From assembly GCA_054600435.1 (NCBI GenBank), contig BAAIJX010000013.1, positions 372,001 to 436,000 on the forward strand: a stretch of 64,000 nucleotides of DNA, written 5' to 3'. Under the pieces are notes generated by a model. It was not told where the DNA came from. It made no database searches and worked only from the letters and a program-made list of their open reading frames with translations. The stretch's first letter is position 1, and each line of letters starts with the position of its first letter. Origin of the DNA: Neophaeotheca triangularis (lineage: Eukaryota). Below are positions 41,223 through 62,586 of this stretch, in pieces. The translations under genes and the position numbers were made by a program.

Positions 41223-43314
41223 CTACTCAATCTCCATGCGCAAGGCATCGTACTGCACATAAGTCGAACTAGGCAGCAACGCAGGCTCATAGTTTGTCGC
41301 ATTGTACGGCAAACTGAGAATCAACTCGTTCTTCCCGGCGCGCAAGAACTCGGCGTCGAAGACGAACTTATGCGCCAAGTTGTAGCAAATTACGGCCGAG
41401 CGAACAGCGCAGGAGCTGCTCTGGTCGTACCTGGAATCGCCACTTGTTAGCCAGGACACGATGTGAAAAACCAAGGACGAAAACTCACGGGATGATCCAA
41501 GGCTCCAGCTCTTGGCCATTAACCGCGACGGTGTAGTTCAAGTTGGCATGAGGTTCCGACGCATTGAAGATGTCCGTGTTCCCGGCGGCAGTCTTCGCGC
41601 CCGCCAACTGCACCGTCAGCGTCGCTTGCGTCTTCTTGTGCAAAGCGTGCTTCTCGACGTCAAACAGCACGGTCCAGTTGTTGATGTTGCCGTCGCCCTC
41701 GACCTGCTCCTCGCGCTCCGAGTTGGCACGTCCGCCGAAGACGCTCCAGTGCACGTAGTTGAAGTCTTCGACTTCCTTGCTCTCGCCGACGCGGAAAGTC
41801 ACGCCCTCGGGGAAGTCGTCGAGGTAGTCCCAATTGGCCCAGTAAATGCGGTATTGCTCGGGCTCGGTTGGGAATGACAAGTCCCGTTCGTAGCCGTGCT
41901 TGTACTCGCCACCGCTCTTATCGGGAGTGCCGATGCGCCAGAGCTCCTTCCCGGCGGACTCCTCGCGCCAGTGGACACGGGTCTTGGTGTGCTTTCCGGC
42001 GCGGATGACGATGTCGTCTTGTTCGTACTGGCCGAAGATGCCGTCGGCGTAGACGGTTAAGCGGTAGGTGCCGGCGATGACACGAGGGATCTCGACGTGG
42101 CCGGTCTTGGGGTCGATCTCGGCCCAGTACTGGTAGGCGTCCGTGTCCATGTTGTCTTGGAAGTCGATGTCGTTCTGAGCGAGCACTGCGAGCGGCCTCT
42201 TAGCACCGTGGGGGAGCTTGACTTTGGCGTTGAAGGTTCCTCGGCCGCCGGTCTTGACGTAGTTTGGCACGAAATCGGCGATGTCGTCGTAGAATTGGGC
42301 GTTCAGCGTCGGGTCGGCGTATTTAGCGGCGTCGTTGCGCAGTTCTTGAAGTGACGTCCCGGCGGGTGCTTTGTTGAAGTAGTAGTAGAAGGGGCCGAAC
42401 GTACGATCGAAGCCATCGGTGATGTTCGGCGTTTGCTTGCCGTGGTGGTTGGACGAGATATAATTGTAGAGGATGCCGTCGACGGTGAGATCAGATGCCA
42501 GGGGACCGCCGTAGTAAGTATCCTTGGTGTTCATGACAAACCAAGCTCCAAAGGCTGATCCGTCATCGCTAGTGGAGCCGTTGGAGTAGAGGCCGTAGGC
42601 GTCGATATCTCTCCAGTCATCTTGGAAGGTGTACTTGGTGTAGAAGGAGGATTCCGCGTTCAGGTAGGGATCTGCCGACCTGTTTCGCAGGTCCCAGGTT
42701 GCGTCTTGTACAGTGGTAAGGTCCGAGGCGTCGCCACTGGCCGCCGGATTGGGGTTGGGCAGGGGCGCATATTGGATCTCGTTGGTCGCCAGGTCCGTCC
42801 ACAGCGGCGTTTGCGGTCTGAAGAGCGTACGAAGCTCCTGGAGGTTACGCAAAAAAGGCTCCGTCTCGTTGTAGTAAAAGACTCTGGAGAAAGTGTGCAA
42901 GCCCGTCTCGGACTCCCTCAAAAACCAGTACTGTTCGAGAGACTGGTTCGTGGACGGGTAAGTCTCACCCATGACAATGCCAGCCCAGTCGACTCCGTCG
43001 GAATCAGTGCCTTGGTGAAGCATGTATCTCGAGTCCCCGGAGCCCGGCGTCCAGAAACCCTCGGGCGTGCAGTAGCAGTCGAGGTAGGGACCGGTGCCAG
43101 CGTAGCCATTGCGCTCGCCAAGCAGATCCTGTGAATCGAGCCGGAGCTGGTCGATGGTTCCGGAGCTCTTGTTCACGGAAGCGTGAAGACGGTCATTGGC
43201 AACTGTGATGCGGCCATCCGTCTCTTCTGCCGTCAAAGCCCCCAATACTGGCCTCGAAGAAGCAAGAAAACCCAAGGCCAACGCTTTGAGATTGAAGGGA
43301 TTCGTCGACGACAT
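41223..43314 (-). CDS. Secreted rhamnogalacturonan endolyase, PL4 (RglB/C-like)
   Basis: Signal peptide; GPYLDC, LQELRTLFRP, TVQDATW, YISSNHHG, WRIGTPDKS, YVQYDALRME. Intron 41431-41488. Confidence 0.92.
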
Positions 43315-47961: not shown

Positions 47962-48849
47962 TCAGACCTCCTGCGTTCGCTCTGTCCTACCCGACCAGTA
48001 CCCTCTAGCTAGCGTTAAAACCCAACCCATAATCATGATAGCCCAGTGGAGCCAATTAGGTGTGCTGTCGAGCACTTCACCAGCCCAGTCGTAACGATGC
48101 TTGCCCCAAAGAAGCTCCGCACTACCCTCGTCCAATGTCACCATCGAAACCAAAGGATCCAGGCCAAGCGTCATCCTCACAGCAGCCTTGAGCGCAAAAA
48201 GCAGTATCACTCGTCCCAGTCTCGAAGTCAAACCAGATGCCGTGAGCGAGGATTGCCTCCAAAGACGCTTGGATAGGCGAAAGCTACCGTATCCGCAACA
48301 GGAAACGTACAGTGACAACGCCACATAGTTGAAACCCAACTGCACTCCTCTACGCATCGAGGGCGCTGTGATGCTCTCACTTTGCAGCAGCAGTACGGCA
48401 TTTGCCAAAGCGGCCGTTACAAGGGGCCCGAGCAGCCATAGTAAGAGCGGTCTGGAGGCGTGCTTGAACTCCGGCATGGGGTGCTCTCGCTTGTCGTCAC
48501 GCGAAATCGCAGCCTGCGCTTCTGGCTCTCTTCCACGAGCCACAAAATACTGGCGGAGAGAACTCTGCGCGGATTCGCAGCTTAACAGGTAGAGTACAGC
48601 CGCACCCATTTGCAATGCCCAAGGCATCATTGACAGCCAGAGCAGGAATTTGGTCCAGAGCGGTTCGGCTATTGCGTAGATCAAGACTGCGATGATGGTG
48701 GAACGGAGTATGGGCGCAAGCCTTGCGTCGGGAGGCTGGCTCTCGGCCACCACCCACTGGTGCAACGGGAGGCATATATCGTTGAGGATTGTGAGGGAAT
48801 TGAGGATAAGGATCAAGGGCCTTGCGAAGGCTAGTTCCGATGTGGCCAT
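47962..48849 (-). CDS. Orphan multi-pass membrane protein (295 aa)
   Basis: ATG-initiated intronless ORF with about 6-7 hydrophobic segments. No recognised family. Confidence 0.55.
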   Translation of the reverse strand: MATSELAFARPLILILNSLTILNDICLPLHQWVVAESQPPDARLAPILRSTIIAVLIYAIAEPLWTKFLLWLSMMPWALQMGAAVLYLLSCESAQSSLRQYFVARGREPEAQAAISRDDKREHPMPEFKHASRPLLLWLLGPLVTAALANAVLLLQSESITAPSMRRGVQLGFNYVALSLYVSCCGYGSFRLSKRLWRQSSLTASGLTSRLGRVILLFALKAAVRMTLGLDPLVSMVTLDEGSAELLWGKHRYDWAGEVLDSTPNWLHWAIMIMGWVLTLARGYWSGRTERTQEV

Positions 48850-49713: not shown

Positions 49714-50031
49714 TTAGGAGATGGCGCGTGAAACGAAGAAAGAATTCGCATTATCGTCTGGAATCGTGAAGCAGATGTCCGTCGATGTCGTGTAGATCTG
49801 ATCTTGACAGTTGCTGTCGGAGTAAACGGTCATGGTCTGGCCAGCGGTGAAATCTGCCATGATCATAGATCGTGCCTGCTGCAACTCGGAGATGTCTTTG
49901 CAGTTTTGGAAAAATGGAATGTCGTATGAGTAGAGTCTCTCGCCGTGGCAACCTTCGGAAATGTAACCATCGACATTTACAGCGGCGGCAGCTTGCAGCA
50001 GTGTAGCTGCGATGGCGGCGGTAAAGAGCAT
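49714..50031 (-). CDS. Small secreted 4-Cys protein (105 aa), single beta/gamma-crystallin-like domain
   Basis: Signal MLFTAAIAATLLQAAAA; two Y-x4-C..S Greek-key-like halves; homologous to the N-terminus of the 51658 gene. Confidence 0.82.
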   Translation of the reverse strand: MLFTAAIAATLLQAAAAVNVDGYISEGCHGERLYSYDIPFFQNCKDISELQQARSMIMADFTAGQTMTVYSDSNCQDQIYTTSTDICFTIPDDNANSFFVSRAIS

Positions 50032-51657
50032 CGTTGTGGGTTTGGGCGAAGACTGAAAGATGTTGGAAAAGTGGTAGTTTGCTGTGTTTCCAAGTCGGTG
50101 GATGGAGCTTAGGGTCGTGGTGAGCGTGGTGGTACTGCGTTTCGAAGACATCAATCTTATAATGCAGTAACTCGCGGGATCAGCCAAGGACCAGCAAGCT
50201 ATGAAAGGAGTACATACGTCCGCGGAGAAGATTGAAGGAGTATTGATCCACTCCACCGCTGCGACCTGCGACACAAGCAACTGTACGCCGTTTAAGACGT
50301 CGTGATGAACTTAAATCACCCGCATCCCCCGGGCAAACGAGGAATGCAATTAACACTGCTATGGAACAGCGTGGAGCATGGCTGCATGAATGGCACCCTG
50401 TTAAACAAGGGTTGCTGTCGATCCATCCGCTCAAGTCGAATATGGGGCTTTCCTGCACGTGCTTAACATCATGCTGAGCTATCAGACCTCAGAGACGACA
50501 AATTATACGTCGTGCCAACGCAGATGCAAGCATCTTAAGGCAGGCGCTTGGTGAAGCTTATACAGAATCTATCGAAGCCACGAGGAAGGATTCTTAGTTT
50601 ACAATCAGAGTTATGCCCCTCCCACGTCCCCGAAACAAAGTGGTGGGGTTGACGGGGCATGTCAATGGAAGTAGACTTTTTGCTAAGCCCATTCTGGGCT
50701 AACGCTTAACACCACGACGTGAGGATTCATCAATACTCCCGAGTCCTTCGTCGACTTGCGTGCAGCTCGCGTAAAAGCGATCACATTATTCCATTGCAGT
50801 AGCGGTCGACTAGCTAAATCCAACCAGATAGTTCGATCTTCGCCGTCACGAGAAGGGAGGCGTATGACTTGATAGCACGTCTTGGTTGAATTTTTACTAC
50901 TGCAACTCCTACGAGACTATTACGTCCATCGTCGGTCAACGACTCTCATGCCTTGTACTCCTTTCTTTTGTCCAACGGAGCGGAATGCAACATGGCTCCG
51001 GCTCTGATTAAGCACATTTACAGCAATACCCATACCGCAAATGCGTCGAATCGTTAGGAGCCTCACTTTGCGGTAGCCAGACTAGCACTCGGCCTGCTTT
51101 GTCACTTCAAACCAGGCTCTCAACTTCCACTGGCCTCAACATTATGGTCGACTCGAGACCACCAGTATCACCACGTGCAGGACCTACTCCAAACGTTAAG
51201 ATGCCCGTGGTACTCTCGTTTCAATTCTAATGGTAAAGCTCCACTGTTTTCTCCGTCGACTTGATGGTGGTGAACTCTCAAGGGCAACCGACATATCGCT
51301 TTGGCCAATAGCCTCGCCTCATCCAGTCGGCAAACAATGCTGCTTATAATCAGGTCTGAATACTGACTTGATGATCTTGCCCTTTCCAAGATTATGTTGG
51401 AGCTGTGGGAGGATGCAGATGCAGTATTGGCCTGTTCGAACCTTACGTTAGGATTCCGCTTTTTCCGCTCTTCGGTTTCGATCATCAATACACAGGCGGC
51501 GGGTGAGACCAAAACTATTAAAGGAGACGTCGAGCCTCAAAGAAATTACGACTCTTCACGCATACTCAGATCATTGTCTCGCAAAGGCAAACCCGGCCTC
51601 AGCAAAGCTCCAACGTACCAAGCATATTGTCGCATTCCCCATTGCCAACCTCTCAAG

Positions 51658-53001
51658 ATGGCAGTATCATGGCGCTCTCTAGCGGTCTTGTTTTTGCCTG
51701 TCGCCAGCTGCGTTAATGTCACCTTCTACGATGGCAACAATTGCTCCGGCTATCGTCTATATGGCGGTTCAATCGACAAAGCATTGCCTTGCTACGATCT
51801 TTCCGACTATGCAGTCTCGAACTCCAGCTCTCTCGAGAACCTTGCACCCGGCCAGGTGGTACACTTTTACTCCGACGCAGCGTGCGAGAATGAGGTTTAC
51901 AAGGCCGAGCAGGAGGTCTGCCACGTTCACACCCGTTTCGACGTAGCATCGTTCAAGATCGCCATGTCCGAGCCCACCGGCCCAGAGGCTGATGGTAGAA
52001 TCGCTGTAACGACTACCGACCTTGCCGTCTACAAGATGGACACCTACGAGGGCGAAGGGACCGTGGCACCTGTTGTGCGCATCCCTTTGTCCACTTACTT
52101 TTTTGCTTACTACGGGCTTGAAGTCCTGACGGGTGCGGTCACTCTGTACAGTGTTGCTTCCACTTGCTACGGAGCCAGATTTGGAGACCCAAAGTCCATC
52201 TTCGACTGCATCGTCTCCCCCGTCTCCACAGTCCTGGCCTACTTTCTCGGCAAAAGGTTACAAAACAACATCCAGGTCCAAACTCGCGGCCGCCTGGACG
52301 CAGCGCAAGGCACCGTCACCAACGTCAAGCGAGGCCTTTTAGAAGAAGCCGCAGACCACGAATACCTCACGGCCTTCCTCAATGGCACCGACACTACGCC
52401 CCGGCACGTAGGCTACACGACCCACGACCTCGGCAACGGCGAGCAAACGTCCCCCGTCTACGAATTCGCCAACCTCGGCACCGGCGAGCCCATGCACATG
52501 GCCGCTTTCTGGCACGCCGGCAGCGAAAGCTACGTGCACCGCATGTACCACCCGCACGCGGCCGAGGCGGAGGAGGCTGCGAAGGACGAGCTCAGCAAAC
52601 GCCAGGGCCCCGGGTACCTCTCGCTCCGCTACAACAGCGGCGGGCTGGAATTCCAGGCTTGCAACTACAACACCGCGGCCGACCGGAGCGTGTTCCAGGG
52701 CCTCGGCATCAACGACCACTACAGCAAGATCTACGAGGATTTGACGTGCCTGTTCGATCCCACGAGCTACCAGGACGATGCCGGCTTCTATTTTGACGTG
52801 TAAGTCTTCTACTTGTTCCCTTCGTGTGGGAACTTTGTCGTCATGGCGCCGGTTACTGACGTGCTTATCCCTCGCAGTTACAATGGCCAACGCAACGTCG
52901 TGTCCGGGATCAAGATAAGGGCTTTCGATGACAACAGGGGCGGTATCGCGAACCTCAACTGCGATTTTCCTACGTCGCAGAACCAGCAATGTCTCAACTG
53001 A
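51658..53001 (+). CDS. Secreted Kex2-processed preproprotein (421 aa), putative K1-like killer toxin with N-terminal crystallin-like domain
   Basis: Signal peptide, 4-Cys domain, hydrophobic hairpin around CYGARFGDPKSIFDC, KR sites at 52327 and 52597, Cys-containing C-terminal chain. Intron 52800-52877. Confidence 0.75.
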
Positions 53002-53526: not shown

Positions 53527-55197
53527 TCAATCCCACCTCAAAACCTCCGCCCCAACCACACCTATCCCCCTGCCTCTACTCCCACCACTACTCCCACCAC
53601 TCCCCATTCCGCCCTTCACAGCCACTCCCACAGCCCCCCTGGGCCCCTGGCAAATCCCACACCTCCCGGCATCCCCGGGGTTCACGTAGCCCGTGCCCTT
53701 GCAAGTCTCGCTGCCGCAGCGCCAGGAGCCACGCACGAGAGAAGGTTTGAGCACGTGCGAGCAGGCGAGGCATAATGTGCTTTCGGCAGCGTTTTCGAGG
53801 GAGCAGATTGGGCAGGAGCTTGGTGCGGGGTTGTTGTTGGAGGTGGATTCTGATGGTTGAGCTGATTGAGGGGTGGGAGTTGTGGTGGGGTTGTTAGTGG
53901 CGGGAGGGGCGGGGATTTTTTTGGGAAAATTGGAAATGGCTGGGTTCGGTTCGTTGGTGCTCGGGGGTTGTTTTGGAGATTCTGGTTCGCTTTCCGTTTC
54001 GGAACCATCTACTGGAGTTATGTGGAAGGGTTTAGAGGGCGGTGGTTCGATCGCGTTGGCTGTAGGCTTGGTGGGCGGTGGAAGGTTGGAGGCTCCGGTG
54101 GAGTCGTCTTCGCTCTCGGTCTCGGAGTCGTCTAAGGTCACGAATCTATCGTTGTCTTGTTTTCTGGCTCCTTCCGTGTTTCCAGCTTTGTTTGATGTAG
54201 GTTGCGACTTCTTTCCAGCACTGAGCGCTCGAAGTTCGTCCATTTCATCCTGACCGCCTTCGCTCTCTTCTTCATCGCCACACACTCTCACCATGTCGTG
54301 ACCCTTGCCATCGACGACCTTTTTGCCGTTGCCTCCAACGCTAGGACCATCGTCAGAACCAGACCACTCCGTCTCGCTCCCATCGTCTTCGTCAAGCTCA
54401 GGCGTATGTTCTGGCGTAGCTTGTTTCGCAGCATCAAATCTCGCGAGAGCCGCAGCCGCTCTCAATTCTCTCCCCCGCTTACTTTGAGCCACCCTAGGCT
54501 TCCCAGCATGATTCTTCTTCTCCAACCCACCCCTCACGAGCTCGTCATCCCCTAGCGCATTCCCACCTCCATGCTTCCCAAACTTCCTCTGAATTCTCTT
54601 CTGCTGCCTCTCAGCATACGTCTCCTTGGCCCTCTCCCTCTTAGCCCCCTCCCCCCTCTTCCTCTTCCTCCCCCTAGCCCTCCGATAAGTCCCCCCGCAC
54701 AAATGCTCCGGCACATCCTCACCCTGGGGCACACGGTCATGCTCGAACCTGCCAGAACCCAAGCCCTTCCCCCGCCCCCACAAACCCTCACCTACATACT
54801 TGCGCTTCCACAACCACTGCATCTCCTCGGCATACGCATTCCTGACCTTCCAGAAACCCCTGCCATGGTTCATCTCTTTGCAATGCGCGAGCTCATGCAT
54901 CATAACCATTTGCACGAATTTGAAACTCAGCCAGCGGCCTTGCTTGTCTTTCAGGACGAGCTGGATGACTTCCCCCGCGTTGAAGTTGCGGCCGAGGAAT
55001 TCCGGGTTCGGGGCGTATTCTTCTAACGACATGAGGGAGATGTAGTTTTTCTGCATTATCGGGAAGCATTGGGCGGCGATGCGGGAGAGAAAGTCTTGGG
55101 AGGTGGCGCTGTCGGGGCCGGGGAGCGGTTTGATGAAGTTGATGTTGGAGTTGGGTCGTTGGGTGCGCTCGTTTAGGCGCTCGAAGCCGAGGGGCAT
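53527..55197 (-). CDS. WLM-domain zinc metalloprotease (Wss1 family) with C-terminal Zn fingers
   Basis: LEEYAPNPEFLGRNFNAGEVIQL, MMHELAHCKEMNH (HEXXH), CPICSLEN..CLAC and WRC..C..N..CGIC. Confidence 0.88.
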   Translation of the reverse strand: MPLGFERLNERTQRPNSNINFIKPLPGPDSATSQDFLSRIAAQCFPIMQKNYISLMSLEEYAPNPEFLGRNFNAGEVIQLVLKDKQGRWLSFKFVQMVMMHELAHCKEMNHGRGFWKVRNAYAEEMQWLWKRKYVGEGLWGRGKGLGSGRFEHDRVPQGEDVPEHLCGGTYRRARGRKRKRGEGAKRERAKETYAERQQKRIQRKFGKHGGGNALGDDELVRGGLEKKNHAGKPRVAQSKRGRELRAAAALARFDAAKQATPEHTPELDEDDGSETEWSGSDDGPSVGGNGKKVVDGKGHDMVRVCGDEEESEGGQDEMDELRALSAGKKSQPTSNKAGNTEGARKQDNDRFVTLDDSETESEDDSTGASNLPPPTKPTANAIEPPPSKPFHITPVDGSETESEPESPKQPPSTNEPNPAISNFPKKIPAPPATNNPTTTPTPQSAQPSESTSNNNPAPSSCPICSLENAAESTLCLACSHVLKPSLVRGSWRCGSETCKGTGYVNPGDAGRCGICQGPRGAVGVAVKGGMGSGGSSGGSRGRGIGVVGAEVLRWD

Positions 55198-56890: not shown

Positions 56891-57621
56891 GCATGGAAAG
56901 GGCTGCTGCATCCAACTGCATCAGAAAGCCATGTCGGAGCGGACGTCCATACCTAGGGGGTAGCTTGCTTGAATGGATGGAAGCCATCTAAAACCACATG
57001 TCCGCACTACCCGTTGAAGTACTTCGGGAACCTTCAAGATGAAGCTCAATGTTGGCTTCGCTCTGAAACGAAACATGGCGTTTTCCCTTCCCTTCTTGAC
57101 ATTATTATTCTCGTTGTACACACGTTCGAGACTCCGTCAGACGTCTCGATACGCGTTGAAGAGACTCGACTGGACTCGACGACATGTGACATCCGCAATG
57201 TATCCTTTCGAACCTACATTCCCTATTTGGCCTCTTGACCCCCGAGGCCGCAGACTCCCGCATTGCACGCAAAAGGTTATACGTTAAAGCTCTCCGAAAA
57301 GGTATCTGACATCCCCGGACTGCTCACTGGCCCCTCACTGGCCCTCCCCGGCATCGGGCAGTTTAGGGTTGTCGGGGTACATATAGATATAGGAGGACCC
57401 TGTTGCGCCCGATGCTTGGATCGAAGCAAGGTGGGGGCCATCTCGACATTTTTGGGCACCGAGTCATTAATAAGGTCGGTCGGGTACTTGGGTTGTTACT
57501 TTTTCCTGCTTGCTCGATAAATACAGTCCACCTTCACTTCCTTTTCCTACCCTTTCCAAACACATACCAACTCTCTTTCACACACACACACACATTCCTA
57601 CACACAACGATAATCGACACC

Positions 57622-59106
57622 ATGGCCACCAACGGAGACGTTCAGACCAACGGGGTCAACGGTGTCAATGGCACCCACCCCTCCTCCACCTATGCCCTCG
57701 GCCAATCACACCAAGACCTCATGGAGAAGAGCCTGGTAGACACAGACCCGGAGATTGCTGAGATCATGCGCAAAGAGGTGAAGCGTCAACGCGAATCCAT
57801 CCTCCTCATCGCCTCCGAGAACGTTACCTCCAGGGCTGTTTTCGACGCTCTAGGCTCGCCCATGAGCAACAAATACAGTGAGGGATACCCTGGCGCCAGA
57901 TACTACGGCGGTAACGAGCACATCGACGAGATCGAAATCACATGCCAGCAAAGAGCATTGCAGACTTTCGGTCTCGACAGCGAGAGATGGGGTGTCAACG
58001 TCCAATGCTTGTCAGGGTCGCCTGCCAACCTCCAAGTTTACCAAGCCATTATGCGTCCCCACGAGCGCATCATGGGTCTCGACTTGCCTCACGGTGGTCA
58101 CTTGTCCCACGGCTACCAAACCCCGACCAAGAAAATCAGCGCCGTCAGCACCTACTTCGAAACCTTCCCCTACCGCGTAAACCTCGAAACCGGCCTGATC
58201 GACTACGACCAGCTCGAGCAAAACGCCATGATGTACCGCCCCAAAGTCATCGTCGCTGGTACCTCTGCCTACTGCCGCACCATCGACTACGCGCGCATGC
58301 GCGAGATCGCAGACAAGGTCGGCTGCTACCTCATGGTAGACATGGCCCACATCTCCGGCCTGGTCGCCGCGCGCGTCAACGCCAACCCCTTCGAACACGC
58401 CGACATCGTCACAACCACGACGCACAAATCCCTCCGCGGCCCCCGCGGCGCCATGATCTTCTTCCGCCGCGGCGTCCGCAAGACGGAAATGAAAGCCGGC
58501 AAAGAAGTGCAAACCCTCTACGATCTTGAAGGCCCTATTAACTTCTCCGTCTTCCCGGGCCACCAAGGCGGCCCTCACAACCACACCATCACCGCGCTCG
58601 CCGTCGCTCTCAAGCAAGCCCAGAGCAAAGACTTCCTTGCTTACCAAGAGCAAGTCATCAAAAACGCCAAACAGCTCGAACACAGCTTCAAATCGCGCGG
58701 TTACAAGCTCGTCACCGACGGCACCGACAACCACATGGTGCTTCTCGACCTCAAGCCCCTCTCCCTCGACGGCGCTCGTGTCGAAGCCGTTCTCGAGCAA
58801 GTCAACATCGCTTGCAACAAGAACACCACCCCCGGCGACAAGTCGGCGCTCACACCTTGCGGTATCCGTATCGGCGCGCCCGCTATGACGAGCAGAGGCA
58901 TGGGCGAGCAGGATTTCGACCGCATCGTCGGGTACATTGACCGCTGCATCCAGCTCGTCAAGAGCATCCAGGCGGACCTCCCCAAGGAGGCCAACAAGCA
59001 GAAGGATTTCAAGGCCAAGGTCGCCGGTGGCGGTGGTATCAAGGAGATTGCTCAGCTCAAGAGCGAGATTGCCGAGTGGGCTGTCACTTTCCCTCTGCCG
59101 GTCTAA
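57622..59106 (+). CDS. SHM2: Serine hydroxymethyltransferase, cytosolic type
   Basis: [44 protein letters not shown] (PLP Lys), QGGPHNH. No mitochondrial presequence evident. Confidence 0.95.
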
Positions 59107-60966: not shown

Positions 60967-62586
60967 CTACTCCCCAGGCATCCCCCTCCTCAAATTCTCA
61001 AACCGACTCCCAGGATACTCCAGACAATTCCACTGCACCTCCAACCTCTTCCCCCCGTACCCACCCATTTCTTGCGAGACGAGGTTGATAACACTCTGAC
61101 TCGAGTTTCCGGCAAAATCGCCGCTGGTCTCCCACCACATTGCGCCGCCTAATTTGTTCTGCTCAATGTACGCGACCTTCTTGGCGGCGACTTCGAGAGA
61201 GTCGTAGGAGATCATGGTTTTGGTGGTCGGGTTGTAGAGGTAGGAGGCTACGGCTTCGGGGTCGTAGTGGGATTCGAAACCTGGGAGGGGGAGGGCCTGG
61301 GAAGAGGGGTGGGTTAGTTTGGTGGGGTTGGAGAAAGGGGGGGAGGAAGGATTCAGGTGGGTTGTGGAGGAAGTGGTGGAGTGTCAGATTAGATCAAGTT
61401 TATTTTCCACGCCCATTGCTGTCGGTCTTCGCCACTCGCCGGAACCACGTGGTGGGTTGGGTGCGAGAGCTGTAATCAATGGAAGAGAGAGCTCGGCGTT
61501 TTGCTCTATCATCATGCTGTGGTGCGAGGGGAAAGAGAAAAGACTGCGAACTCAACGTACCTTGTAGTCCCAGACACCATTTTCCCAACTGCCGCCTCCA
61601 ACACCATTGTACGGGTGTCCAGGCCCATCAGTCTGCGTAAACGCACGTCCATAGAGTGGCATACCCAGCACGATCTTCGGAGACCTCACGCCATTCTTGA
61701 CGTACCAGTGGATGGCACTGTGGGTATCAAAAGGCGTGCTGGTAGGGTTCGACCGACTTTTGTAGAGGTTTGCTTGGTGGCCAGCTGTCGCGTCCCAAGA
61801 GCCGGCAAAATCGTAAGCCATCATGTTCCAGAAGTCGAGGTACGCGTCCATTTCCTTAAGACGCAACCAACGACTGTTCGAAGGACCGGCAGGACACGCA
61901 ATGGTCAAAAGGAAGTGGGGTCGAGAAGGAAGCGTCGCGGAATAGGCTTCCAGTTCATGTCGGGTGGCGGCGAGTAGCTTGACGTAGTCATTGGCCTCTG
62001 CGTCGTTCTTCGGGTACTCCCAATCAACGTCCAGACCATCGAAGCCATAGTCTTTGAGCAACTTGACAGCGCTGAAGGCGAAATTCTTGCGGCCTTGCTT
62101 TGTGGAAGCCGGTTGCGGGAAGTTCGAGCTGTAGGTCCAGCCACCGATACTGAGCAAAGTCTTGAAGTTGCGATTCCTCTTCTTGTGGAGGTACATTTGC
62201 TTGAGAGAGCCGTAGAGATTCTCGCCGACATCATTCCACGAGTCTCCTTCGTAATGCTTCTGTTCGTCCGACCATGAGTCCGTCAAATACACTTCACCGG
62301 ACTCGGGACGGATGTTGGCGAAGGAGTACAACACGTGCGTGAGTTTGTCCGCTGGGACATCCTGAGGTTGATGATTGCGGCCGTAAATTGCCCAATTGAC
62401 ATAATAGGCTACCGAGCGGTAGCCCTCTTGGTTGGACATGGTTGTGGCTGCCTCTGCCGGGTTCGTAGCGTACTCGTTATTGCCAGTCGACCGTGGGATT
62501 GCTTTGTGTCGAAGGTCTCGCGCTGAGGCATAGTTAGGGGAGAGAGCAAACGCAGCAAGAAGACAATGCACCACCCATCTGGCCAT
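60967..62586 (-). CDS. Secreted GH18 chitinase (class V / subgroup A)
   Basis: Signal peptide; [45 protein letters not shown]. Intron 61297-61560. Confidence 0.95.
61380..61519 (-). ncRNA. Intronic box C/D guide RNA targeting U2 snRNA (G25)
   Basis: In the 264-nt chitinase intron: C box ATGATGA (61515-61509) and D box CTGA (61387-61384), preceded by ACTTGATCTAA, which is complementary to fungal U2 UUAGAUCAAGU. Confidence 0.75.

Follow-up and report, generated by a model that had tools for sequence, protein, structure and literature searches.

Killer toxins of the K1/KKT type, found in budding yeasts, are made as one precursor with delta, alpha, gamma and beta parts, which Kex2 cuts at dibasic sites (bioRxiv 10.1101/2024.10.11.617966). 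As described there, the hydrophobic, helical alpha part of K1 is toxic alone, its glycosylated gamma part is removed and immunity comes from the precursor itself, with no crystallin domain and no partner gene. The closest described system to the one considered here is K45, encoded by the M45 double-stranded RNA (dsRNA) satellite of Saccharomyces paradoxus, and our comparison with it is based on Creagh et al. 2026 (PMC13211469). In that paper, K45 is divided into alpha (residues 57-179), gamma (180-267) and beta (268-370), with modelled disulfides C123-C137 and C311-C367; its central helix is pinned at the N-terminal end and its tail is pinned to beta. The K1-superfamily core is described there as a sheet formed mainly from strands between two helices, followed by a C-terminal strand, helix and two strands. 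For the K2 family, section 2.4.4 of the same paper states that the N-terminal prepro region alone confers immunity. Relatives of K45 in Dothideomycetes are already on record, because Table S2 of PMC13211469 counts 67 of them among 490 PSI-BLAST homologues; the word "crystallin" is absent from the main text. Here we describe a pair of divergent genes in 64,000 nucleotides of Neophaeotheca triangularis (assembly GCA_054600435.1, contig BAAIJX010000013.1, positions 372,001 to 436,000 of the forward strand). [quoted passage not shown] We call the whole 64,000-nucleotide stretch the window, and coordinates are positions in it unless another contig is named.

MiAMP1 and the Williopsis mrakii killer toxin WmKT are basic, antifungal proteins, and WmKT and crystallin-fold antifungals of the MiAMP1 class bind or act on cell-wall glucan. 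Small secreted proteins of this fold are widespread in fungi (PMC13525658), and in Cladosporium fulvum they include Ecp4, Ecp7, CfCE44 and CfCE72 (bioRxiv 10.1101/127746). In CfCE72, according to the same preprint, a kexin site lies between a KP6-like part and a crystallin-like part, which makes it a parallel fusion. However, its partner is KP6-like and its crystallin region comes last, whereas in the window protein the partner is K45-like and the crystallin domain comes first. Divergent gene pairs also have precedents in AvrLm10A/AvrLm10B and SIX5/Avr2, which are co-expressed neighbours whose small secreted products bind each other; pairs of the AvrLm10A/B type are conserved across Dothideomycetes and Sordariomycetes (PMC10346447). 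As described there, these pairs resemble ours in being neighbouring, divergently transcribed genes for secreted proteins, but they are unrelated to it in sequence, their members are not paralogues of each other, and they act in plants.

In paper listings, Neophaeotheca is a genus of marine, halotolerant black yeasts of the Dothideomycetes. The small gene (49714-50031, minus strand) encodes 105 amino acids and its product is on record as P0005. The large gene, on the plus strand, has its first exon at 51658-52799 (codons 1-380 and two bases of codon 381), an intron of 78 nucleotides at 52800-52877 (GTAAGT...CAG), and a second exon at 52878-53001, which supplies the final 41 residues, including the conserved C409 and C419, and the TGA stop. 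The product has 421 amino acids. The large gene model is confirmed because three lines agree: the translation of exon 1 (381 residues) matches the 421-residue P0002 with 100% identity and 100% coverage, exon 2 matches positions 366-407 of the family profile (E 1.8e-4), and a contig from a sequencing run, X1, skips exactly 52800-52877 and joins 52799 to 52878. P0002 is named in NCBI [quoted passage not shown]. The start codons of the two genes lie head to head, facing away from each other across a spacer of 1626 bp (50032-51657), which is presumably a shared divergent promoter region. The presence of two divergent genes at 49714-50031 (-) and 51658-53001 (+) for proteins predicted to be secreted is therefore confirmed, as are the coordinates given in an earlier note made from the letters of the window.

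Residues 1-17 of the small protein read like a signal peptide, and the mature part is a single four-cysteine domain of the beta/gamma-crystallin type, acidic in composition (isoelectric point, pI, 4.05; charge -8). The open reading frame (ORF) list also holds a longer frame for this gene, of 145 residues from an upstream ATG at 50151; the form on record has 105. That in-frame ATG would put 40 extra residues before the signal peptide. A 180-residue variant (P0094) belongs to the same 90% cluster, and contigs from a related strain reach at least 50108.

In two runs of one study, short contigs that cover parts of both genes, the spliced junction among them, are 95-99% similar to the window. Both runs are RNA by guess only and consist of contigs, which cannot rank expression. 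The joined 52799/52878 form exists in run X1, and in principle it could be an intron-less DNA allele. The stretch 50120-51979 has no contig cover and carries no information. Nine coding differences separate these contigs from the window: six are synonymous, two fall in the small protein's signal peptide and one in a low-confidence linker of the large protein.

The main body of the large protein resembles a killer-toxin precursor. We built a structure model of the 421 residues with an 82-row alignment (A4), made from 79 of the 90 family matches described below plus P0003, P0005 and P0097; omitted were P0030, P0041, P0049, P0058, P0062, P0065, P0073, P0080, P0084, P0090 and P0091. The model has a mean predicted local distance difference test score (pLDDT) of 75 and a predicted template modelling score (pTM) of 0.56; folding from the single sequence was unusable (mean pLDDT 32.7). 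When this model was compared by Foldseek with predicted viral proteins in BFVD, the K45 killer preprotoxin ranked first (E 3.9e-5, probability 1.00, 263 columns, 18% identity), and K1L killer toxin ranked third (E 7e-3, probability 0.80). The description of the large gene in the earlier note as a K1-like preprotoxin is borne out by these matches, and the processing sites and cysteine layout agree with the published K45/K1 superfamily.

Three segments can be read along this body. The alpha-like segment (residues 141-225; 52078-52332, +) is hydrophobic and basic (pI 9.56), has helices at 162-175 and 178-200, carries Cys170 and Cys184, and ends in K224-R225. The gamma-like segment (226-315; 52333-52602, +) contains no cysteine, has an N-glycosylation sequon at N242, is modelled as a helix and a four-stranded sheet at pLDDT 85-91, and ends in K314-R315. 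The beta-like segment (316-421; 52603-52799, +, and on into exon 2) has cysteines at 335, 364, 409 and 419, and its elements follow the order strand, helix, two strands and a cysteine-pinned tail. DSSP assignment of the model places the alpha helix at 178-200, the gamma strands at 249-257, 262-271, 278-286 and 291-297, and the beta elements at 330-337 (strand), 351-365 (helix), 376-382 and 388-396 (strands). Compared by element order, this fits the core motif published for the K1 superfamily in PMC13211469.

The same features are conserved in the 21 members of alignment A3. A [KR]R pair is kept at position 225 in 17/21 and at 315/316 in 21/21. Ten cysteines are conserved: the head holds four, the hydrophobic part two (C170 and C184, invariant in 21/21) and the last part another four (17/21). 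The gamma-like part is free of cysteine in every member and carries a sequon in 12/21. In the model helix 162-175 ends with C170 and helix 178-200 opens with C184, and we infer that a disulfide between them pins the hydrophobic central helix of alpha, while the tail cysteine pins to beta.

Measured against the K45 values of PMC13211469, the match extends to spacing. The alpha cysteine pair is 14 residues apart in both proteins (C170, C184; C123-C137), the second of these cysteines lies 41 residues from the alpha/gamma site (42 in K45), gamma is 90 residues long (88), beta 106 (103), and the tail cysteines are 55 apart (C364, C419) versus 56 (C311-C367). By eye, the K45 helix DCVVGAVDTGVTLG and DCIVSPVSTVLAYF of the window protein have 5/14 residues in common, assuming that the motif cysteine is C137. 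K45 is thus the best structural match, with the same order of parts and dibasic boundaries. There are also clear differences. The large gene is chromosomal and has an intron, whereas K45 lies on a dsRNA satellite; the window protein has an 85-residue beta/gamma-crystallin domain before alpha, in the place of the K1/K45 delta and early alpha parts, and two extra cysteines in beta; and the window locus has a separately encoded free head next door. The window protein shows no detectable sequence similarity to K1, and Pfam assigns no family to the large protein or to its relatives P0030 and P0002. On the model, then, the large protein is a toxin-like precursor of the K45 family within the K1 superfamily, to which a crystallin head has been added; the kinship is structural and positional and not sequence-based.

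The head (residues 19-103; 51712-51966, +; Cys 29, 45, 76 and 88) is shared with the small protein. In a single BLASTP comparison, residues 6-87 of the small protein and 7-88 of the large one align without gaps (25/82 identical, E 4e-13), with all four cysteines in register; a count by hand in the earlier note had given 24/81. A hidden Markov model of the domain, run against the six-frame translation of the window, finds only two copies, the small gene (E 4.6e-41) and the head of the large gene. In the model of the large protein the head consists of eight strands at pLDDT 91-97. Every Foldseek match listed from the PDB has the beta/gamma-crystallin fold (probability 0.97-1.00, target TM-score 0.33-0.65; best E 5.8e-3 for the whole 421-residue query), and the matches listed include clostrillin, protein S, spherulin 3a, lens crystallins and MiAMP1. 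With VIA-align, run on 48,161 chains, the crystallin fold likewise accounts for 19 of the top 20, with Z of 8.3-6.8, root-mean-square deviation of 2.2-3.8 Å and 74-89 residues aligned in the model range 13-119. Neurospora APP (5Z6E) scored Z 7.6, MiAMP1 (1C01) Z 6.8 over 75/76 residues, WmKT (1WKT) Z 4.8 and SKLP Z 3.7. The domain common to both proteins is accordingly predicted to fold as a beta/gamma-crystallin domain, in line with the crystallin-like Greek key that had been proposed from the letters.

Sequence comparisons place the domain at a distance from named families. None of the 33 sequences of alignment A2 reached the Pfam threshold for Crystall (PF00030), Inhibitor_I36 (PF03995) or MiAMP1 (PF09117); the closest was MiAMP1 (E 0.028; 12.9 bits vs a threshold of 26), with 2/33 members at E<=1. 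The family profile distantly matches P0091 (E 6.9e-4), a bacterial-type Inhibitor_I36 protein (E 9.4e-9). Atlas points to I36, MiAMP1 and Crystall clusters at scores of 0.81-0.85, as leads only. PDB sequence searches with the large protein and with profiles A2 and A3 gave nothing below E 0.36. The double-clamp Ca2+ motif N/D-N/D-x-x-S/T-S is not seen when the family consensus is read by eye; in the second Greek key of the small protein D-D-N-A-N-S comes near it, with a mismatch at the fifth place. MiAMP1, WmKT, APP and the C. fulvum proteins have the same fold and are likewise small, cysteine-stabilised and secreted, also in Dothideomycetes. Unlike MiAMP1, the window family has four cysteines in another pattern and is acidic rather than basic. 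Among the stand-alone relatives 4/24 are basic, and the small protein has neither the basic charge nor the cysteine pattern of the MiAMP1/WmKT type.

To place both proteins among their relatives, we used a search of 1.84 billion representative proteins with a profile that combined the large and small proteins with two relatives of the Hortaea type. It returned 90 matches at E<=1e-3, of which 50 reached E<=1e-10 and 20 reached E<=1e-30. These are of two kinds: about 20 full-length proteins of 400-445 residues with the same architecture end to end, and many stand-alone secreted proteins of about 90-120 residues that match the head only. A word-index search with the small protein found only itself, and with profile A2 it gave 8 matches, none of them named; the clusters of 10 small representatives likewise yielded neither names nor locus tags. 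One apparent relative, P0041 (2438 residues, with 11 matching stretches, E 3.6e-18), was rejected as an FN3-repeat protein and a repeat-driven false positive. Those large-family members that bear a name come from Hortaea werneckii, Zasmidium cellare and Alternaria rosae, and all are called "hypothetical". Zasmidium cellare has at least four divergent large-family paralogues on different contigs (P0019, P0020, P0028 and P0042). This points to expansion of the toxin-like family in some Mycosphaerellaceae.

The large protein might not be a toxin at all, its K45-like fold and Kex2 processing serving some other extracellular role, for example in the cell wall or in development. A common fold is no proof of common function, the named relatives are all "hypothetical", K45 has no functional study later than its discovery (PMC13211469), and some K2-family homologues are named cell-wall proteins in the supplementary table of that paper. 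However, the hallmarks of K1/K2 toxicity are kept, namely the hydrophobic central helix with its cysteine pair, a gamma part that would be excised and the alpha/beta layout, and the divergent paralogues of Z. cellare are of a kind that arms-race families often have. We consider a role other than a toxin improbable.

A tree of the domain shows how the two kinds of protein are related. It contains 61 sequences: from A4, the 60 rows that retain 65 or more residues of the domain, and in addition the small protein of a metagenome contig (L001) described below; 22 fragment rows were dropped. The 25 stand-alone and 36 fused domains split on a single branch (ultrafast bootstrap 96; Shimodaira-Hasegawa-like approximate likelihood ratio test, SH-aLRT, 88), and 94% of 200 bootstrap trees need one change of state between stand-alone and fused. 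The small protein of the window groups with P0033 and the L001 small protein (95/86), and the head of its large protein groups with P0015, P0004, P0006 and P0021 (98/93). A tree of the core only (20 rows, P0003 omitted) repeats the groups of the head tree, which argues that the head was fused once, long ago. Given this single split, the small gene is a paralogue of old standing rather than a recent copy of the gene beside it, and the domain tree rules out recent local duplication as its origin. The earlier note had called the small gene a copy of the toxin's own N-terminal domain; in a recent sense this does not hold, since the two are old sister groups.

Is the pairing itself conserved? The earlier note had proposed this as a check, and the pairing recurs at one distant locus seen directly, with two more inferred from equal contig sizes. 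The metagenome scan used a three-sequence alignment (A6) that included P0024, a near-identical product of the organism from which L001 derives, and it was thus biased to that organism. The two contigs found, L001 and L002, represent a single sequence, with 99.9% identity over 5965 bp. On it lie a large homologue that is 38-41% identical in tblastn segments and, 1387 bp upstream of it and head to head, an orthologue of the small protein with the same length of 105 residues, 52/105 identities and a similar C-terminus. Their remaining ORFs have no counterpart in the window at E<=1e-3, a membrane-protein gene excepted, and conservation between the spacer DNA of the window and that of L001 is limited to one 13-mer. 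Elsewhere, small P0048 and large P0010 come from the same source, each on a Logan contig of 3740 bases, and small P0054 and large P0013 come from the same source, each on an ENA contig of 3148 bases. Judged from the equal size of their source contigs, these are probably further linked pairs; the comparison covered 17 small and about 22 large proteins, and by our own rough estimate about 0.1 such coincidences would be expected by chance. Three or four pairs in different branches of both trees fit co-inheritance. Since distant relatives keep the same pairing, the small and large gene products probably work together.

ORFs (L001 5834-6055, +; L002 5843-6445, -) and low-complexity sequence stand between the large gene and the membrane-protein gene of this locus. 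By eye, the N-terminus of these ORFs resembles a pogo/Tc5-type transposase helix-turn-helix, which suggests an insertion separating the genes.

The alternative is that the two genes are functionally independent, the small protein being a crystallin-fold effector or antimicrobial of the Ecp4/Ecp7/MiAMP1 class. Adjacency would then go back to the toxin gene having captured a copy of its neighbour, or the reverse, with the shared upstream region holding the two together; local duplication or fusion would explain it with no interplay between the products. Small secreted proteins of this fold are widespread in fungi (PMC13525658; Ecp4, Ecp7 and CfCE44 among them), and the stand-alone group in our tree is large and diverse. 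Against independence, the pair stayed head to head although identity between its members at the two loci has fallen to about 50% and 40%, and the contig's remaining genes, the membrane-protein gene apart, went unmatched in the window. The two further probable pairs belong to different branches in each tree, and with its acidic pI of 4.05 the small protein differs from MiAMP1 and WmKT, which are basic. On balance we regard independence as somewhat unlikely.

The reading that we tentatively prefer, short of confidence, is a coupled module in which the free head acts as decoy or immunity partner for the large gene product. By analogy with K1 and K2, the large precursor would enter the endoplasmic reticulum and form its disulfides, Kex2 would cut at KR225 and KR315, and the gamma part would be lost, leaving an alpha/beta product that would attack rival fungi at their membranes through its basic hydrophobic alpha part. 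The crystallin head would probably be a cell-surface module that binds glucan or a receptor; this is the simplest guess because cell-wall glucan is what proteins of the WmKT/MiAMP1 class bind or act on. The small protein would be a free, acidic, secreted head, an old paralogue kept head to head with the large gene, presumably on one divergent promoter region. Such a free head could compete for the ligand and protect the producer, pair with the head of the toxin, or act alone. In the module that we prefer it would either occupy the surface ligand of the toxin head or pair with that head as crystallin domains do, and either route would spare the producer's own cells. The protective reading is plausible because the N-terminal prepro region of K2-family toxins alone gives immunity. 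In the window's large protein there is no dibasic site between head and alpha part, and so the head probably stays attached to alpha. In an Alternaria rosae clade (P0059, P0061, P0067) the linker between head and alpha is longer and rich in dibasic sites, and there the head may be released as a free domain.

The small protein could also be a co-subunit or chaperone that pairs with the head of the toxin and is needed for its folding, secretion, stability or full killing. The fold is that of domain-pairing crystallins, the linkage is conserved, and AvrLm10A/AvrLm10B are described as a physically interacting divergent pair (PMC10346447). However, both crystallin domains here are acidic, and most K45-family toxins presumably work without such a partner, which leads us to give this reading little credence. 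Our best guess puts protection first, independence second and the co-subunit third.

Several points weigh against a coupled module with a protective free head. The model of the large protein is poor at residues 133-168 (pLDDT <50), and its pTM is 0.56. A dibasic site between head and alpha, missing from the window protein, is present in 6/21 members of A3. Apart from the window, a single independent locus showed the linkage directly. Stand-alone relatives are many (25/61 rows of the tree, plus clusters in Ascomycota and Basidiomycota as leads), and most of them may be unconnected with any toxin gene. The K1 precursor itself gives immunity, so a separate factor is not strictly needed, and immunity could equally plausibly come from the membrane protein encoded beside the small gene. 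Finally, K45 is itself little characterised, and the label "toxin" therefore rests on structural kinship.

The membrane protein just mentioned has 295 residues in several membrane-spanning passes and is encoded at 47962-48849 on the minus strand, next to the small gene. Among pore-forming bacteriocins, immunity proteins embedded in the membrane are the usual case. A similar gene stands beside the L002 pair (L002 6674-7516, +; 280 residues): BLASTP gives 20/66 identical residues (E 5e-7), global alignment gives z 6.8 (200 shuffles), and both proteins have hydrophobic segments. The membrane-protein gene may thus be a third member of the toxin/partner cluster, a membership suggested by its recurrence beside both pairs. 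It could even be the immunity factor of a three-gene cassette, in which the small crystallin protein would have some other accessory role, and this gene and the pair are the only genes common to the L002 contig and the window. However, the two proteins are only weakly similar (30% over 66 residues), the gene is placed and oriented differently at the two loci, the comparison covers one locus besides the window, and Pfam finds no family for the membrane protein of either locus. We consider this the least probable of the arrangements weighed here.

The remaining neighbours are ordinary: a PL4-type polysaccharide lyase (41485-43314), a WLM metalloprotease with a zinc ribbon (53527-55197), serine hydroxymethyltransferase (57412-59106) and a GH18 chitinase (61552-62586). 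The neighbourhood in the window shows no sign of a secondary-metabolite or effector island. A viral or satellite origin of the locus is ruled out by these chromosomal neighbours together with the intron in the large gene.

Several elements of this locus are already known, namely K45 homologues in Dothideomycetes, crystallin-fold secreted fungal proteins, the CfCE72 fusion and divergent cooperating effector pairs. In the literature searched, with supplementary accession lists and subscription journals outside its reach, we found neither a crystallin head on a K45-like precursor nor a conserved divergent partner gene encoding that head, and the earlier note, which knew of no description of the arrangement, agrees with this. 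The window locus links two protein classes that have been treated apart until now, crystallin-fold effectors and killer-toxin precursors.

The most far-reaching version of our preferred reading is a chromosomal toxin-immunity cassette, in which a K1-superfamily pore-former would be aimed by its crystallin head, the producer would be protected in trans by the free head, possibly with the membrane protein, and the whole would have been inherited as a unit since the early radiation of the Dothideomycetes. We regard this complete version as speculative and rather unlikely. If it were true, it would provide the first known case in this toxin superfamily of an immunity partner with a gene of its own; until now, immunity there has been ascribed to the precursor. 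The crystallin-fold "effector" domain, common in fungal secretomes, can be a module of a killer-toxin precursor. In moulds, hundreds of chromosomal homologues are uncharacterised. This locus offers a concrete, conserved two-gene, perhaps three-gene, unit in which targeting can be studied apart from self-protection.

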